A stretch of DNA of 64,000 nt from Pyrinomonadaceae bacterium (GTDB lineage: Bacteria > Acidobacteriota > Blastocatellia > Pyrinomonadales > Pyrinomonadaceae). The stretch lies in contig DATHBB010000171.1 of assembly GCA_035296385.1 (NCBI GenBank), positions 7,329-71,328 on the forward strand, given 5' to 3'. A program made the position numbers and the translations under genes. The notes beneath the pieces are model-generated. The model was not told the origin of the DNA and made no database searches. It saw only the letters and a program-made list of their open reading frames with translations. This document shows positions 506 to 26,078 of the stretch, one piece after another (position 1 is the first letter of the stretch; each line of letters opens with the position of its first letter).

Positions 506-1600
506 ATGCTTCTTCCTCGCCGGTCGTCAACACTCCTGAAACTCTTCTTCGTCTGCGCGTGCCTGTTGGGGACAGGCACGCGCGCGCAGGAGGAGACGGT
601 GGGACCAACCGCCGCTGCCGCAGGCGTCGTGCATGCCGACACGGTGCGCGCCATCGAACTCTACAAACAGGGCAGCCACGCGCAGGCGGCCGACATTTTG
701 CGTCGCGCGGTCAAGCAGCGTAAAACGGACGCGCAGGCGTGGCTCCATCTCGGCATCGCACTCTCTCGCGCGGGCAAGTCGAAAGACGCGCGCAAGGCGT
801 TCGAGCAAACGCTCAAACTGAGTCCGCACACCCCTCAAGCCCATATCGGCATGGCTTACATCTACATGGACGAGAACAAGCCGGCCGAAGCCGAACAGCA
901 CGCGGTGCGCGCCGTCTCGATTGCTCCGAGGAACGCCGAGGCGCATTACGCGCTCGGGTTAATCGCCCTGCGGCAAGGCTCCGCCGCAAAAGCGTTGGCC
1001 GAAGCCGACACGACCTTGCGGCTCAATCCTGATTTCGTCGGCGCGTTAATTTTGAAAACGGAAGCGACGGTGGAGGTCTATACCGCCGCCAATGCCCAGA
1101 AGGTGGCAAAGTATCGTATGCTGAAGCAGCCCACGCCCCCGCTTACGCCGGAGGAGCGAGCCGAGAGCGGCAAGATGTTGAGGGAGGCGGCCGAGAGCGT
1201 GGAGAAATATCTCAGGCTGTCTCCCGCTTCGCCCGCCGCGGCGCGTCTGCGCGAGCAGGCCGAGGCGCTGCGCTGGCACGCCGAAGTGTTGGCCGAAAGC
1301 GATGCGCCGTTTGCTTACGCCGCCGATGCCGTCACCACGAAAGCGCAAATCGTCTCAAAGCCGGAACCGCTCTACACGGACGAGGCGCGAAACAACGGCA
1401 TCTCCGGCACGGTTCGTTTGAGGATGCTGCTCGCTTTTGACGGACGGGTCAGGCATATTTCCGTCCTGCAAGGTCTGGCAGGCGGGCTGACGGAAATGGC
1501 CGTCAATGCGGCGCGCAAGATCAAGTTCACCCCGGCCACTAAGGACGGTCGTCCCGTCTCGCAGTTCGTTACCATCGAGTACAACTTCCACATTTTCTGA
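506..1600 (+). CDS. TPR-repeat protein with TonB C-terminal domain
   Basis: Start moved to ATG 506 because 452 overlaps secA. Signal-like N-terminus MLLPRRSSTLLKLFFVCACLLG. TPR-like repeats (AQAWLHLGIALSRAGKSKDARKAFEQTLKLSP, AEAHYALGLIALRQG). TonB-C-like end (KPEPLYTDEARNNGISGTVRLRMLLAFDGRV ... IKFTPATKDGRPV). Confidence 0.8.
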   Translation: MLLPRRSSTLLKLFFVCACLLGTGTRAQEETVGPTAAAAGVVHADTVRAIELYKQGSHAQAADILRRAVKQRKTDAQAWLHLGIALSRAGKSKDARKAFEQTLKLSPHTPQAHIGMAYIYMDENKPAEAEQHAVRAVSIAPRNAEAHYALGLIALRQGSAAKALAEADTTLRLNPDFVGALILKTEATVEVYTAANAQKVAKYRMLKQPTPPLTPEERAESGKMLREAAESVEKYLRLSPASPAAARLREQAEALRWHAEVLAESDAPFAYAADAVTTKAQIVSKPEPLYTDEARNNGISGTVRLRMLLAFDGRVRHISVLQGLAGGLTEMAVNAARKIKFTPATKDGRPVSQFVTIEYNFHIF

Positions 1601-1666
1601 GTTGCCGAAACTATAATCAACGTCTCCCCGCGCCTCGGCGCAACTTCCTTTCGGGCATAACTTTTC

Positions 1667-5969: not shown

Positions 5970-6019
5970 AATTTTCCTCCTTCGGTCATAAAGCAGACGC
6001 CGCCGCCGGGCGTCCACGC

Positions 6020-22528: not shown

Positions 22529-23653
22529 ATGACGGACAAAGAGCAGTTCACAATCGGGGTCGAGGAAGAATACCAGATCGTTGATCGGGAGACGCGCGAG
22601 TTGCGCCCGCGCGCCCTGCGTATCCTGCCGGAGGCGCAAGAGGCTGTGGGCGAGAGCGTCACGCCGGAACTCTACCTCTCGCAGATCGAGATCGGCACAA
22701 ATATCTGCGCGACGCTCGGAGAGGTGCGCGACGAACTCACGCACCTGCGCCGCGAAGTCATCTCCGCCGCCGAATCCGACGGCCACTGGATCGCTGCGGC
22801 GGGCACGCATCCCTTTTCTCACTGGGCGGATCAAGAGTTGACGCCCAAGCGTCGTTATCGCGGCATCGCGGATGAGTACGAACAACTGGCGCGCGAGCAG
22901 TTGATCTTCGGCTGCCACGTCCACATCGGCATGCGCGACCGCGAGGCGGCGATTCATGTGATGAACCGCGCGCGACTGTGGCTCGCGCCGCTTCTGGCGC
23001 TCGCCGCCAACTCGCCCTACTGGCTCGGCTGGGATACGGGCTACGCCAGTTTCCGCACCGAAATCTGGCGGCGCTGGCCGATGTCCGGCACGCCGCAAGT
23101 CTTTCGCTCGCGCGAAGAATACGACGCGCTCGTCGCAACTCTGGTCGAAACCGGAAGCGTGTCGGACGGGACGAAAATCTACTGGGACGTGCGCCCCTCG
23201 GCGCGCTACGAAACGCTCGAATATCGCGTCACGGACGTGTGCCTGACGATTGACGAAGCCGTCATGATCGCCGGACTCGTGCGCGCGCTCACGCGCACCG
23301 CCTACGCACACTACATGCGCGGCGAACCGCTCACCGAAGTGCGCCCCGAACTGCTCCGCGCAGCCAAGTGGCGAGCGGCGCGCTACGGCCTCGACGCAGA
23401 ACTGGTAGATGCGCGCGACGGCTGCGCGCGCCCCGCCGCCGAACTCATCGAAAAGCTGCTCGCGCACCTGCGCCCCGCGCTCGAAGAGGACGGCAACTGG
23501 GATGAAGTCGCCGCGCTCACGCGCTACACGCTGGCGCGCGGCAACGGGGCGGCGCGACAGCGTCAGGTCTTCACGCGCACCGAGAGCTACGAGGCCATCG
23601 TCGATCTCATCGTCAGCGAAACGGCCAAAGGCACGGAGCGTGCGTCGTCGTAA
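22529..23653 (+). CDS. Carboxylate-amine ligase, YbdK/GCS2 family
   Basis: FTIGVEEEYQIVD and FGCHVHIGM are family hallmarks. The start is either ATG 22529 or TTG 22514, only 8-23 nt from the divergent receptor start codon. Confidence 0.9.
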   Translation: MTDKEQFTIGVEEEYQIVDRETRELRPRALRILPEAQEAVGESVTPELYLSQIEIGTNICATLGEVRDELTHLRREVISAAESDGHWIAAAGTHPFSHWADQELTPKRRYRGIADEYEQLAREQLIFGCHVHIGMRDREAAIHVMNRARLWLAPLLALAANSPYWLGWDTGYASFRTEIWRRWPMSGTPQVFRSREEYDALVATLVETGSVSDGTKIYWDVRPSARYETLEYRVTDVCLTIDEAVMIAGLVRALTRTAYAHYMRGEPLTEVRPELLRAAKWRAARYGLDAELVDARDGCARPAAELIEKLLAHLRPALEEDGNWDEVAALTRYTLARGNGAARQRQVFTRTESYEAIVDLIVSETAKGTERASS

Positions 23654-23741
23654 AGGGGCGCAGGCCATCGTAAAATTGAAGGGAGATGTTACCTGCGCGT
23701 CGCCGGTAAGCGCGTGAGCGAATCGTTAAGGAAGCCGCGTG

Positions 23742-24152
23742 ATGGACGAGCGAAAGAGGCGTCTGAAGAAAGAGTACCTGCAACAGCGCAGGGCGATGGG
23801 CGTCTTCCTCATACGCAATACGGTCAACGACAAGGTGCTCGTCGGCGTCGGTCTCGATCTTTCAGGCATCATCAACAGCCACAAGTTCCAACTGGCGGCG
23901 GGCGTTCACCGCAACCGGCGTCTGCAAAGCGATTGGAACGCGCTCGGCGGCGCGAACTTCACCTTCGAGATTCTCGATCAACTCGAACCGCGCGCGGACG
24001 CCGAAGACGACGGGCGACAGGATTTGGCGTTTCTCGAAGAACTCTGGCTGGAGAAGTTGCAACCGTTCGGCACGCGCGGCTACAACAAACGCAAGCTGAC
24101 GAGAGAAGAGATGCTGCGGCGAATCGCAGCCGGACAGTCGCCCAAACACTGA
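23742..24152 (+). CDS. GIY-YIG domain protein
   Basis: AAGGAAG RBS 7 nt before ATG 23742. GVFLIRNTVNDKVLVGVGLDLSGIINSHKFQLAAGVHRNRRLQSDW ... FTFEILD follows the GIY-(10-11 aa)-YIG ... R ... H ... N ... E layout of small GIY-YIG proteins. Confidence 0.7.
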   Translation: MDERKRRLKKEYLQQRRAMGVFLIRNTVNDKVLVGVGLDLSGIINSHKFQLAAGVHRNRRLQSDWNALGGANFTFEILDQLEPRADAEDDGRQDLAFLEELWLEKLQPFGTRGYNKRKLTREEMLRRIAAGQSPKH

Positions 24153-24221
24153 CGCTCGAATTACGCGGAAAATTTCGTTCCGGCCTGGGCAGATTTTACC
24201 AGCCCCGTCTCAACCAGCCGG

Positions 24222-24251
24222 TTGAGACGCCTGAGAGCGGTGCGGTATAGT
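24222..24251 (+). promoter_or_regulatory. Sigma70-like promoter upstream of the tRNA-Ser locus (TTGAGA, 18-nt spacer, TATAGT)
   Basis: TTGAGA at 24222..24227 and TATAGT at 24246..24251, about 15 nt before the tRNA-like 5' fragment. Confidence 0.5.
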
Positions 24252-24266
24252 GTGTGAGCAAATTAG

Positions 24267-24302
24267 GGAGGCTTGGGCTAATTGGTAAGTCAGCAGTCTT
24301 GA
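24267..24302 (+). pseudogene. 5' half of a disrupted tRNA-Ser(UGA) gene (acceptor strand through anticodon)
   Basis: GGAGGCT TG GGC TAATTGGTAA GTC A GCAGT CTTGA is 29/36 identical to the intact tRNA-Ser 424 bp downstream. The D-loop and the C-U-UGA part of the anticodon loop are identical. Similarity stops exactly after anticodon base 36. Confidence 0.8.
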
Positions 24303-24334
24303 GTCCCGTTGTCTCTGTCGCTATATTATTTTCT

Positions 24335-24700
24335 ATGAGAATTACTCAAAGAAAAGGTGACATAGCAACTGCTCAGGCCATAGCAACCTTTACACGTTTG
24401 GGCTACGATGTGTCCATTCCGATAACGGAATCTGCTAAATATGACTTAATCGTTGATACGCCCGATGGACTCAGACGGGTACAGGTTAAATATAGCAGTG
24501 ATCGGAAAGTGGGTTTAAGAAACATCCACTCAAACGCGAGCGGGTATGTGGTGAAAAAATGTGAGCCGAACGCTTACGATTGGCTCTATATCCTCTATGC
24601 GGCGCAAACTGGATTTGAGGAATATCTGTTACCCGAATGTTTTGCGGGTCGAAACTCTGTAAGTCTCACCCCATATTCCAGGATTCTGATGGAAGGGTAG
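24335..24700 (+). CDS. PD-(D/E)XK endonuclease, I-Ssp6803I-like (homing-endonuclease-type)
   Basis: ATG 24335 gives MRITQRKGDIATAQAIATFTRLGYDVSIPITESAKYDLIVDTPDGLRRVQVKYS. This is the KG-(x)-AE ... G ... V ... P ... YDLI ... RVQVK pattern of the small PD-(D/E)XK family that includes the tRNA-intron homing endonuclease I-Ssp6803I. The ORF is visibly AT-rich relative to the flanks, and its stop codon lies inside the tRNA. Confidence 0.7.
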   Translation: MRITQRKGDIATAQAIATFTRLGYDVSIPITESAKYDLIVDTPDGLRRVQVKYSSDRKVGLRNIHSNASGYVVKKCEPNAYDWLYILYAAQTGFEEYLLPECFAGRNSVSLTPYSRILMEG

Positions 24701-24776
24701 CCTAATTGGTAAGGCAGTAGTCTTGAAAACTACCGCACGAAAGTGCTTGCAGGTTCGAGTCCTGTCCCTTCCGCCA
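24691..24776 (+). tRNA. tRNA-Ser (anticodon UGA), CCA encoded
   Basis: Manual cloverleaf. Acceptor GGAAGGG / CCCTTCC. 3-bp D stem GCC/GGC with loop TAATTGGTAA. Anticodon stem GTAGT/ACTAC with loop CTTGAAA. Long variable arm GCAC-GAAA-GTGC. T arm GCAGG-TTCGAGT-CCTGT. Discriminator G, then CCA. Confidence 0.9.
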
Positions 24777-24803
24777 TTTTGAATTTAAGGTTCGGAGACG
24801 CAT

Positions 24804-24829
24804 GACGGGTTCGAGTCCCTCAGCCTCCG
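24804..24829 (+). pseudogene. 3' end (T arm plus acceptor strand) of the disrupted tRNA-Ser gene
   Basis: GACGGG TTCGAGT CCCTC AGCCTCC G. The AGCCTCC strand is the exact complement of GGAGGCT at 24267..24273, not of the intact tRNA acceptor. The T stem has an extra C. No anticodon-stem 3' strand is present. Confidence 0.7.
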
Positions 24830-24850
24830 TTTGATTTGAGACGCACGCTT

Positions 24851-24886
24851 GAGCCGCCCCCGCTTGCCGCAGAGCATGGGCGGCTC
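24851..24886 (+). terminator. Hairpin, possible terminator of the tRNA transcription unit
   Basis: gagccgccc / gggcggctc: 9-bp stem, 18-nt loop, followed by a T-containing tract (gttcagttt). Confidence 0.4.
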
Positions 24887-24932
24887 GTTCAGTTTGCGGT
24901 TGGCGTGTGATGATAAGGAGTGAGGACGGATC

Positions 24933-26078
24933 ATGCTCGAATTTTTGACGTGTGAAACGGTGGCGGGCGCGGCGCGTGCGGCACTCTCGTCGGGGCAGAC
25001 GCTCGCGGCGAATCTCTGGCTGTGGCAGGCGCAAGCAGCGCCGACGCCTACCCCGCAAGCCGCTCTGCAAACAACACCCACGCCGATCACGCCCGCCGCA
25101 CCGCCTCCACCGGAGAGCAACGTCAACTGGGCGATCCGTTTCTGGAACAACTACCTCAACCAGAAACTTGAGATCGGCGACACGCTCAAAATCTCCGTCG
25201 CCTCGCTCATCCTCGGCGTGCTCATTCTGCTCGCCGCGTGGGTCTTGTCGCGCACGCTTCGCAGGTTGCTCGAAGGGCGTCTGGCCGCGCGCACACATCT
25301 CGATCCGGGTTTACAGTTCACGCTGCTCAGGCTCACGCATTACGTGATTCTGACGGTCGGCATCATTCTCGCCGCGAGCGTCGGGTTGAACGCGAATTTC
25401 ACTTCAGTCGCCGTCATCTTCACCGCGCTCTCGGTCGGCATCGGCTTCGGCTTGCAGTTCATCGCGGGCGACATCGCCTCCGGCTTCATACTGCTCTTCG
25501 AACGCCCCGCGCGCATCGGCGACTGGGTCACGATCACGGGGCCGGACAGCAAGCTCACCGAAGGCCGCGTGCAGGCGATCAACCTGCGCACGACATCCGT
25601 GCTGACCAACGACCGCATCACCGTCATCGTCCCGAACTCGAAACTCGTCAACGACAACCTCGTCAACTGGTCTTACGCAGACCGACGCTCGCGCATCAGT
25701 GTGCCCGTCGGGGTCTCCTATAACGCGGACGTTGATCTCGTCACGGACACGCTCTTGCGCGCCGCCGAAGGGATCACGCACGTCTTGCCCGAACCGAAGC
25801 CGAACGTGCAGTTCCTCGGCTTCGGCGAATCGTCGCTCGACTTTCGCCTGCTCGTCTGGACGGACAGGCCGCGCCGCCACCCGCAGATCAAAAGCGACAT
25901 TAACTACCGCATCTGGCGTCTCTTCAAAGAGGCCGGAATCGAAATCCCCTTCCCGCAGCGCGATCTCAACCTGCGCGGCGCGTCGCTTCGCCTGGACACG
26001 CCCGGCGGCCAACATCTCAGGCTCTCCGGCGCGGACGAAGAGGACGAAGAGCGCGAAGAAAATCTGACGCGAAGATAA
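24933..26078 (+). CDS. Mechanosensitive ion channel family protein (MscS-like)
   Basis: AAGGAG RBS. Transmembrane helices, then the MscS beta-domain RIGDWVTITGPDSKLTEGRVQAINLRTTSVLTNDRITVIVPNSKLVNDNLVNWS. Confidence 0.85.
   Translation: MLEFLTCETVAGAARAALSSGQTLAANLWLWQAQAAPTPTPQAALQTTPTPITPAAPPPPESNVNWAIRFWNNYLNQKLEIGDTLKISVASLILGVLILLAAWVLSRTLRRLLEGRLAARTHLDPGLQFTLLRLTHYVILTVGIILAASVGLNANFTSVAVIFTALSVGIGFGLQFIAGDIASGFILLFERPARIGDWVTITGPDSKLTEGRVQAINLRTTSVLTNDRITVIVPNSKLVNDNLVNWSYADRRSRISVPVGVSYNADVDLVTDTLLRAAEGITHVLPEPKPNVQFLGFGESSLDFRLLVWTDRPRRHPQIKSDINYRIWRLFKEAGIEIPFPQRDLNLRGASLRLDTPGGQHLRLSGADEEDEEREENLTRR

Follow-up and report, generated by a model that had tools for sequence, protein, structure and literature searches.

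An endonuclease gene and a complete tRNA-Ser(UGA) gene inside the anticodon loop of a resident tRNA-Ser(UGA) gene in Pyrinomonadaceae: a probable intron-less homing cassette

How can a homing endonuclease gene live in an essential gene with neither an intron nor an intein around it? Association with self-splicing elements is considered to be what frees homing genes to invade conserved genes (PMC3943268). The question is raised by a locus in a 64,000-nt stretch of DNA from a Pyrinomonadaceae bacterium (GenBank assembly GCA_035296385.1, contig DATHBB010000171.1, positions 7,329 to 71,328 of the forward strand), which we call the window and whose host is a Pyrinomonadaceae-like acidobacterium. 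Here, an open reading frame (ORF) for a small nuclease and an intact tRNA-Ser(UGA) gene lie between two pieces of a second tRNA-Ser(UGA) gene. A previous sequence-only reading of the window had proposed that an ancestral tRNA-Ser(UGA) gene was broken in its anticodon loop by a cassette of about 0.5 kb, and had noted that such an architecture was not known to be described. Indeed, our full-text literature searches found no description of a nuclease and a spare tRNA nested in a broken tRNA gene. The comparison with related genomes bears out the proposed insertion, and the locus is probably an intron-less homing cassette.

A tRNA-Ser(UGA) gene interrupted in its anticodon loop

The split resident gene spans 24267..24829 on the plus strand, on which all features of the locus lie, and its insert is approximately 490 bp long. 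The 5' stump with the sequence GGAGGCTTGGGCTAATTGGTAAGTCAGCAGTCTTGA (24267..24302) corresponds to tRNA nucleotides 1-36, which are the acceptor 5' strand, the D arm, the anticodon-stem 5' strand and C-U-UGA. It is 29/36 identical to the intact inner tRNA, with mismatches at positions 4, 6, 7, 9, 11, 24 and 28. Then follow the ORF (24335..24700) and the inner tRNA-Ser(UGA) with its GGAAGGG acceptor strand (24691..24776), which is the only tRNA called by ARAGORN in the 64-kb window and matches the Rfam tRNA model with 62.3 bits (E 1.2e-12). The 3' stump, GACGGGTTCGAGTCCCTCAGCCTCCG (24804..24829), comprises a damaged T-stem 5' strand, the T loop, the T-stem 3' strand, AGCCTCC and the discriminator G. 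Its AGCCTCC (24822..24828) is complementary to the GGAGGCT of the 5' stump and not to the acceptor strand of the inner tRNA, and its T-stem 5' strand deviates from the native GGGGG by one extra C and one G-to-A change. The region 24250..24800 has a GC content of 42-48%, compared to 56-73% in the flanks. All these elements had been recognized correctly from the letters alone. The insert contains the 121-aa nuclease ORF, the tRNA and no other gene, and only ~32 nt plus ~27 nt of it belong to neither of the two.

Taken by themselves, the stumps are not called by ARAGORN or Rfam, and an nhmmer tRNA-Ser profile matches them weakly (E 0.7 for the 5' stump and 0.009 for the 3' stump). Their identity as tRNA remnants, which the sequence-only reading would have judged by such scores, was settled instead by empty alleles in relatives. 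A metagenome scan for the anticodon arm expected of the unbroken outer gene, GGTAAGTCAGCAGTCTTGAAAACTGC, returned 19 contigs. Six alleles (L088, L093, L098, L090, L085 and L083; loci outside the window are given by such numbers) contain an uninterrupted 83-nt tRNA-Ser(UGA) of the GGAGGCT type, with exactly one tRNA at the site. In the first five of them, GGAGGCTTAGGCTAATTGGTAAGTCAGCAGTCTTGAAAACTGCCGCGAGAAATCGCTTGGGGGTTCGAGTCCCTCAGCCTCCG is located between the same promoter and the same terminator as in the window. The 5' stump agrees with nucleotides 1-36 of this native tRNA at 35/36 positions, and the last 22 nt of the 3' stump agree with its 3' end at 22/22 positions. Chance matches are excluded because the stumps are nearly identical to the uninterrupted alleles. 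Where the contigs reach far enough, the neighbouring genes are also the same, with amino acid identities to the window of 86-87% for GCS2 (upstream) and of 78-93% for MscS and 87-94% for TetR (downstream).

The same cassette was found at the orthologous locus of six further relatives (L001-L005 and L108), in which the ORF is 86-93% identical to that of the window; L003-L005 are titled Pyrinomonadaceae metagenome-assembled genomes (MAGs). Thus, both forms of the locus which had been predicted for relatives, the uninterrupted GGAGGCT-type gene and the occupied one, exist, and a tandem duplication lacking the ORF, which would have spoken against the proposal, was not seen among them. The nested layout of the window is shared by L001-L003 and L108, while L004 has no 3' stump and L005 no 5' stump. 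Since the uninterrupted alleles have the same flanks, we conclude that the resident gene was split by the insert of approximately 490 bp, and the insertion itself is close to certain.

The signals of the resident gene were also retained. Its native promoter (24222..24251; TTGAGA, 18 nt, TATAGT according to a promoter scan) is part of a conserved stretch, GTTGAG...GGTGCGGTATAGTG, which also precedes the unbroken tRNA in the empty alleles. Its native terminator (24851..24895) is a hairpin formed by GAGCCGCCC ... GGGCGGCTC with a T-containing tail, for which RNA folding predicts -33.6 kcal/mol and z -3.78, and it is kept behind empty and occupied alleles alike. The old tRNA promoter and the old terminator frame the entire unit.

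Where exactly was the gene opened? The left junction lies after tRNA nucleotide 32-36. It is ambiguous over TTGA (nucleotides 33-36) since the -35 box of the cassette also starts with TTGA; the earlier statement that the 5' half ends exactly after base 36 therefore has to be relaxed, while the half itself and its 29/36 identity stand. The right junction is contained in 24777..24803, where alignment with the empty alleles reveals a cassette 3' spacer, in which the motif TTTGAATTTA is conserved, and after it what is left of the outer variable arm in degenerate form. On this side the native gene becomes recognizable again in the variable arm or the T arm. Nucleotides 37 to ~46 of the outer tRNA are lost or unrecognizable in the window lineage, and a complement of the anticodon-stem 5' strand is absent from 24777..24803. 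A more distant occupied allele, L106 (ORF 79% identical), has preserved more: outer nucleotides 1-32 and 37/38 to the end are intact and the loop alone is replaced. The junctions in L106 therefore place the original insertion site in the anticodon loop. In L021, the 3' piece begins in the loop.

The stumps are conserved to an unexpected degree for remnants of a broken gene. Among six occupied alleles, only 2/36 columns of the 5' stump are variable, compared to 74/118 third positions of the ORF (Fisher p = 3e-10). The mean pairwise identity is 0.978 for the 5' stump, 1.000 for the last 22 nt of the 3' stump (alignment A2) and 0.989 for the inner tRNA, but 0.67 for the third positions of the ORF, 0.52-0.71 for adjacent non-coding DNA and 0.71-0.84 for the spacer and variable-arm remnant at 24777..24803. 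The last 17 nt of the 3' stump, the motif by which six occupied alleles were located, match in all of these alleles, and the preceding 10 nt vary. Decay is restricted to the vicinity of the right junction, where it affects the variable-arm remnant, the T-stem 5' strand and the T loop; either of the latter two is mutated in the window, L005, L108 and L106. The outer gene had been described as decaying, and this is correct for this part only, not for most of the stumps. The two outer acceptor strands of L107 have changed in concert (GGAGGCG with CGCCTCC), as would be seen if another native allele had been the one invaded. Together, these patterns suggest that the stumps function as homology arms or are regenerated as such.

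In the trees of MscS, TetR and GCS2, as in those of the 70-75 nt directly outside the tRNA, alleles with and without the cassette are intermixed. Therefore, gain or loss of the cassette must have been repeated, with crossovers inside the tRNA sequence. Presence and absence are polymorphic at one exact site among close relatives, and the native tRNA is almost invariant across genera in which the flanks have only ~60% protein identity.

A small I-Ssp6803I-type endonuclease linked to tRNA-Ser(UGA)

The ORF consists of 121 codons and a stop codon, and its start (MRxTQRKGD) is fixed by homologues. It belongs to the I-Ssp6803I-type PD-(D/E)XK endonucleases, as the sequence-only reading had suspected. 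It matches Pfam PF11645 (PDDEXK_5) with 62.5 bits (cut-off 26.1; E 5.6e-17) and the I-Ssp6803I structure (PDB 2OST) with E 2e-4 as a single sequence and E 1.2e-9 over residues 1-90 when a family profile built from 34 sequences was used. For the AlphaFold2 model of the protein (predicted local distance difference test score, pLDDT, 87.2; predicted template modelling score, pTM, 0.82) the first four Foldseek matches are 2OST chains (best 2OST_A with E 1.7e-7 and a TM score of 0.73), followed by archaeal Hjc resolvases. The predicted fold is restriction-endonuclease-like alpha/beta, nearest to I-Ssp6803I and Hjc. The NCBIfam models gave no match to the ORF, and an exact-sequence look-up of the window protein returned no identical record.

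Residues E32, D37, D41 and Q50-V51-K52 align with D32, D37, D41 and Q50-V51-K52 of 2OST and have putative catalytic roles. In alignment A1, D37, D41, Q50, V51 and also K74 are invariant, while K52 is replaced by R in most homologues from Patescibacteria. The replacement would mean either that the catalytic lysine is located elsewhere in this subfamily or that many copies are inactive. The gene is under strong purifying selection: the ratio of nonsynonymous to synonymous substitution rates (dN/dS) among relatives is 0.03-0.09 over dS values of 0.3-1.3, compared to roughly 0.1-0.3 for the neighbouring host genes.

The protein database contains at least 987 relatives of the ORF. Since they are mostly 113-124 aa long, the window ORF is of full length for its subfamily. 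The name given to them by NCBI is "group I intron-associated PD-(D/E)XK endonuclease". However, an Rfam scan of 23600..25500 with E values up to 10 for a group I intron or another ribozyme returned only the tRNA and a chance match to isrG. Together with the shortness of the non-coding part of the insert, this shows that the gene is not encoded within a self-splicing group I intron.

What the family is linked to is a tRNA gene. Scanning of 185,579 species genomes (one per species) resulted in 149 matching places, of which the best 80 were fetched. These relatives have 54-93% identity and stem from Pyrinomonadaceae, Blastocatellia, many Patescibacteria, Actinomycetota, Planctomycetota, Omnitrophota and others. 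In 80/83 loci a tRNA-Ser(UGA) called by ARAGORN lies within 150 nt of the ORF. The nearest tRNA is downstream in 37 loci, upstream on the same strand in 13 and upstream on the opposite strand in 25. According to nhmmer, an additional partial tRNA-Ser match adjoins the ORF in 20/83 loci and none does in 63/83. Stumps of the 3' type follow the ORF directly in L017, L019, L021, L029, L039 and L074, stumps of the 5' type are present in L007, L010 and L045, and in L063 the leader and tRNA nucleotides 1-28 are repeated exactly. The distribution is patchy over several phyla, incongruent with that of the hosts, and includes the truncated copies L005 and P0047.

The linkage extends to phages. All four IMG/VR viral contigs with the ORF (4/4) carry it in large tRNA arrays beside a tRNA-Ser(UGA) or similar gene. 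Two viral tRNA-Ser(UGA)-like genes with unusual T loops or D arms (L103 3363..3450 and L104 2880..2961) were missed by ARAGORN and give only partial nhmmer matches. Gene 129 of Arthrobacter phage Talia1610 (L112 1501..1947), annotated as "Holliday junction resolvase", has 63% identity to the ORF and shares 52 nt with an overlapping tRNA-Ser(tga) gene. A second "tRNA-Ser(tga)" of this phage, 69 nt long and without a long variable arm, is located 1.2 kb upstream. More distant PF11645 members (31-37% identity) lie beside other tRNA genes in Vibrio and Mycobacterium phages: gp105 of Vibrio phage River4 (L114 1477..1869) ends 1 nt before a tRNA-Pro, and the partly annotated copy in Mycobacterium phage Stubby (L113 1501..1842) follows a tRNA-Tyr. 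Thus, the PF11645 family as a whole may have tRNA genes as targets.

The inner tRNA is presumed to be the working copy, because it is retained in both degenerate alleles: in L004, which lost the 3' stump, and in L005, which lost the 5' stump together with the first 18 codons of the ORF. It also differs from the resident gene. The endonuclease-linked tRNAs of Pyrinomonadaceae all have the T arm GCAGGTTCGAGTCCTGT and most of them the anticodon stem GTAGT/ACTAC; the native type, with GGGGGTTCGAGTCCCTC and GCAGT/ACTGC, clusters apart from them. The inner tRNA of the window groups with the endonuclease-linked tRNAs of other genera and not with the native type. In L010, a Pyrinomonadaceae MAG, the broken outer tRNA (within 891..1630) resembles the endonuclease-linked type and the intact inner tRNA represents a third type, which suggests serial replacement, i.e. 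successive cassettes displacing one another.

The endonuclease gene has a putative promoter of its own at 24299..24327, where the promoter scan found TTGAGT, 17 nt, TATATT and 7 nt before the ATG. The -35 box overlaps the TTGA of the anticodon loop, and the distance of 7 nt between the -10 box and the ATG corresponds to a leaderless geometry. A TTGACA-N17-TATAAT-N7-ATG layout with a similar spacer recurs in distant cassettes. In cassettes from Patescibacteria and phage (L012, L013, L017, L019, L045, L050 and L104) the spacer is kept across phyla as GTTGCCCATACC(G/T)GTAT and includes ATACCGGTAT, a partial palindrome and possible operator; the window spacer CCCGTTGTCTCTGTCGC resembles it. At the other end, the stop codon TAG (24698..24700) falls within the intact inner tRNA, with which the ORF overlaps by 10 nt. 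Processing of the tRNA by RNase P would therefore strip the stop codon from the mRNA, and this could be a built-in brake on nuclease expression. The ORF also ends inside the 5' part of the following tRNA in L006/L109, L030 and L112.

Homing and the alternatives

We consider it probable that the locus is an intron-less homing-endonuclease cassette, which sits in the anticodon loop of the host tRNA-Ser(UGA) gene and replaces its target gene with a spare tRNA. The nuclease would cut the uninterrupted native gene in or near the anticodon arm, which is a natural pseudo-palindrome, and an occupied allele would be the template for repair of the break. With their match to a highly conserved target, the 36-nt 5' stump and the ~20-nt 3' stump would act as homology arms, and repair would copy in the ORF together with the spare tRNA. 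What would protect the latter from cutting is that it deviates from the target, within about 11 nt of the junction only at position 24 and at the 28:42 pair, and it would take over the function of the gene destroyed by the insertion. Degenerate forms such as L004 and L005 are as expected for the life cycle of homing genes. Intron-less homing of the T4 seg/mob type is recognized by the lack of a self-splicing element and by an endonuclease gene beside a variant of its target gene, and both were found here, the second in the 80/83 loci mentioned above. In seg/mob-type homing, the cleavage site is hundreds to thousands of bp away from the endonuclease gene (PMC2988022). The stumps rather suggest a break inside the gene in which the cassette is now housed, as with intron-encoded enzymes.

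Several observations weigh against this explanation. No difference between the spare and the native tRNA falls in the anticodon loop, and over 23 bp centred on the loop the two differ only at positions 24, 28 and 42; because there are only three differences near the junction, resistance of the spare tRNA is not evident from the sequence. The K52R replacement may mean that some members of the family lack nuclease activity. The TTGA shared at the left junction may point to a founding event mediated by microhomology rather than to clean homing. Synonymous divergence of the ORF (dS 0.33-1.3) is at least as high as that of the flanking genes (dS 0.2-0.5; TetR values with L001 left out because of a frame offset artefact), and the trees of cassette and flanks roughly agree. 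Both also fit long vertical residence with occasional loss, although dS, being based on few sites of differing base composition, cannot separate old vertical residence from horizontal spread. Finally, the conservation of the stumps could come from a function of the stumps and not from repeated homing.

This last point leads to a reading that is compatible with homing and that we regard as quite unlikely, namely that the stumps are kept for their own sake. At the RNA level, the 5' acceptor strand could pair with the 3' T-arm/acceptor piece to a tRNA-like end, which would direct RNase P or 3' processing or shield the nuclease mRNA. As DNA, the half-site in the anticodon arm, which overlaps the -35 box of the ORF, could be an operator for autorepression. 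The stumps are indeed as conserved as the working tRNA (0.98-1.00 versus 0.99, with 0.52-0.71 in neighbouring non-coding DNA), their acceptor strands covary in L107, and the ORF promoter overlaps the stump end. Yet the 3' stump is missing from L004 and the 5' stump from L005, four alleles including the window have mutations in the T-stem 5' strand or T loop, no tRNA can be rebuilt in the absence of nucleotides 37 to ~46, and 63/83 loci of the wider family have no stumps at all. Somewhat greater weight, although still on the unlikely side, is given to the possibility that, within a genuine nested insertion, the protein does not act as a homing nuclease for this site or has ceased to do so. The ORF and the tRNA would then be a co-adapted module moved by ordinary recombination or in phage tRNA arrays; the protein might, for instance, have tRNA-Ser(UGA) or its gene as a substrate, to the benefit of host or phage. 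A dN/dS tighter than that of the flanking host genes, the near-universal linkage to one tRNA species in three gene orders, the occurrence in phage tRNA arrays, the R at position 52 of many homologues and the rough congruence of cassette and flank trees are all in line with this. It fits poorly with the occurrence in as few as 149 places scattered over several phyla at 55-69% identity, with the presence/absence polymorphism at the exact site in close relatives, with the truncated copies L005 and P0047 and with broken target genes beside the ORF in 20 loci. Further, the nearest solved relative of the protein is a bona fide homing endonuclease.

Explanations without a homing-type cassette are far less attractive. 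A tandem duplication of tRNA-Ser, followed by deletions and insertion of an unrelated ORF, would account for the homology of inner and outer tRNAs (29/36 in the 5' half), and the missing outer nucleotides 37 to ~46 do require at least one step of deletion or decay. We nevertheless find it very unlikely that there was no single cassette event: the empty alleles have exactly one tRNA, both stumps match the same native gene and have complementary acceptor strands, the inner tRNA falls among the endonuclease-linked tRNAs of other genera, the insert stands out by its base composition, and in L106 the loop alone is cleanly replaced. Hardly credible, finally, are two further readings: that a group I intron and its homing gene, like those in the Synechocystis tRNA-fMet gene, have degenerated here, or that an island of the integrase type has duplicated a portion of the tRNA. 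The NCBI name of the relatives would suit the former, and integrative elements commonly duplicate tRNA ends; however, the Rfam scan revealed no Intron_gpI or other ribozyme match, the ~32 nt and ~27 nt outside ORF and tRNA leave little room for one, the 0.5-kb insert contains no integrase, and splicing could not re-form an outer tRNA without nucleotides 37 to ~46. Some integrative elements target tRNA genes and carry a replacement tRNA end. They resemble the cassette in that replacement tRNA sequence preserves function and a displaced native fragment is left at the border, and they differ from it in size (0.5 kb for the cassette) and in their use of an integrase and att recombination; the cassette brings a whole tRNA rather than a 3' end and has stumps on both sides.

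Three specific candidates were considered and ruled out. A functional outer tRNA restored by splicing is excluded by the absence of the anticodon-stem 3' strand, and an archaeal-type split tRNA gene by the missing nucleotides 37 to ~46 and by L004 and L005, each of which is without one stump. A tRNA-targeting integrative element is excluded by the content of the insert, which is limited to the nuclease ORF and the tRNA.

Related systems, implications and surroundings of the locus

Among known systems, the probable homing cassette is closest to I-Ssp6803I from the group I intron in the Synechocystis tRNA-fMet gene (PDB 2OST, PF11645), with which it shares the family and fold, the small size of the protein and the site in an anticodon loop. 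I-Ssp6803I acts as a tetramer on a 23-bp pseudo-palindromic target, and a pseudo-palindromic anticodon-arm target is plausible for the cassette enzyme as well (PMC3384342). The differences are that the cassette has no intron but a free-standing gene and a complete spare tRNA, that its target would be tRNA-Ser(UGA), and that its subfamily has ~115-124 aa instead of ~150 and occurs in Acidobacteriota, Patescibacteria, Actinomycetota, Planctomycetota and phages.

Intron-less homing by the seg and mob genes of phage T4, including SegB in the T4 tRNA cluster, likewise depends on a free-standing gene by tRNA genes, which presumably drives the inheritance of itself and of neighbouring tRNA DNA (PMC2988022; PMC8421152). 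There, too, the copy of the neighbouring gene carried by the element must escape cleavage, and phage tRNA arrays also carry members of the cassette family. SegB, however, belongs to the GIY-YIG enzymes and works between phages that infect the same cell, with a tRNA intergenic region as its listed target, whereas the cassette has a chromosomal PD-(D/E)XK gene inside the broken target, keeps both stumps and always has one tRNA species attached. For HNH endonuclease genes beside cyanobacterial tRNA arrays, spread of the adjacent tRNA genes by horizontal transfer was proposed (PMC8421152), similarly to what we suggest here. The nuclease family is a different one, up to 43 tRNAs are involved instead of one, and no resident tRNA gene is disrupted and replaced. 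In fractured genes with split inteins, a homing gene is located between the halves of an essential host gene without a contiguous self-splicing element (PMC2677866). Those halves are rejoined by protein trans-splicing; in the cassette they stay apart and a second complete gene is supplied.

The locus would thus represent a third solution, beside introns and inteins, for living in an essential gene, namely to carry a spare of the gene that is destroyed. It also offers a ready experimental system, with empty, occupied and degenerate alleles in close relatives, ~150 related loci, phage copies and a cultured phage, Talia1610. If the homing explanation is true, it would account for tRNA alleles having been replaced horizontally, and for some of the tRNA pseudogene stumps, in Acidobacteriota, Patescibacteria and Actinomycetota, and would tie the turnover of chromosomal tRNA genes to phage tRNA arrays. 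The I-Ssp6803I family would then extend well past cyanobacterial introns and would be a source of compact (~120 aa) nucleases with natural variation in specificity for targets of the size of tRNA genes. The locus matters for annotation as well, since genes of the family are now labelled "hypothetical", "Holliday junction resolvase" or "group I intron-associated". It is tempting to go further and to see in PF11645 a widespread group of intron-free tRNA-gene homing elements. Its tRNA-Ser(UGA) subfamily would cross phyla and phage arrays by killing the resident gene and installing a resistant copy, cassettes would succeed each other in an arms race over anticodon-stem variants with the stumps as universal homology arms, and the phage members at tRNA-Pro and tRNA-Tyr would be sister systems. 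To our mind, the chances for and against this broader proposal are balanced.

Some minor observations concern sequence details and the surroundings of the locus. In L002, the conserved ATG of the ORF is ACG (6001..6012), and the called gene starts three codons upstream with MLSTRVTQ.... The genes beside the cassette in L001 and L002 and their counterparts in L093 gave no Pfam matches. Directly upstream of the tRNA promoter, a 137-aa ORF (23739..24152, plus strand) corresponds to a GIY-YIG-like catalytic domain only (Pfam E 0.056; TIGR01453 "group I intron endonuclease" E 3e-7, under the cut-off). It was found in L001, L003 and L005 (78-88% identity) and gave no match in L002, L004 and the empty alleles. 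This could be the degenerate form of a second free-standing endonuclease gene, situated in a variable spot. The gene content between GCS2 and the tRNA promoter varies in almost every relative (e.g. L001 4865..5737 and L002 4018..5825). In the empty allele L088 (2322..4061), an intact GCS2 gene is followed by 1.6 kb with a 267-aa ORF and a DUF4160/DUF2442 pair, and then by a repeat of GCS2 codons 335-375. This is a further insertion that duplicated the end of its target gene.

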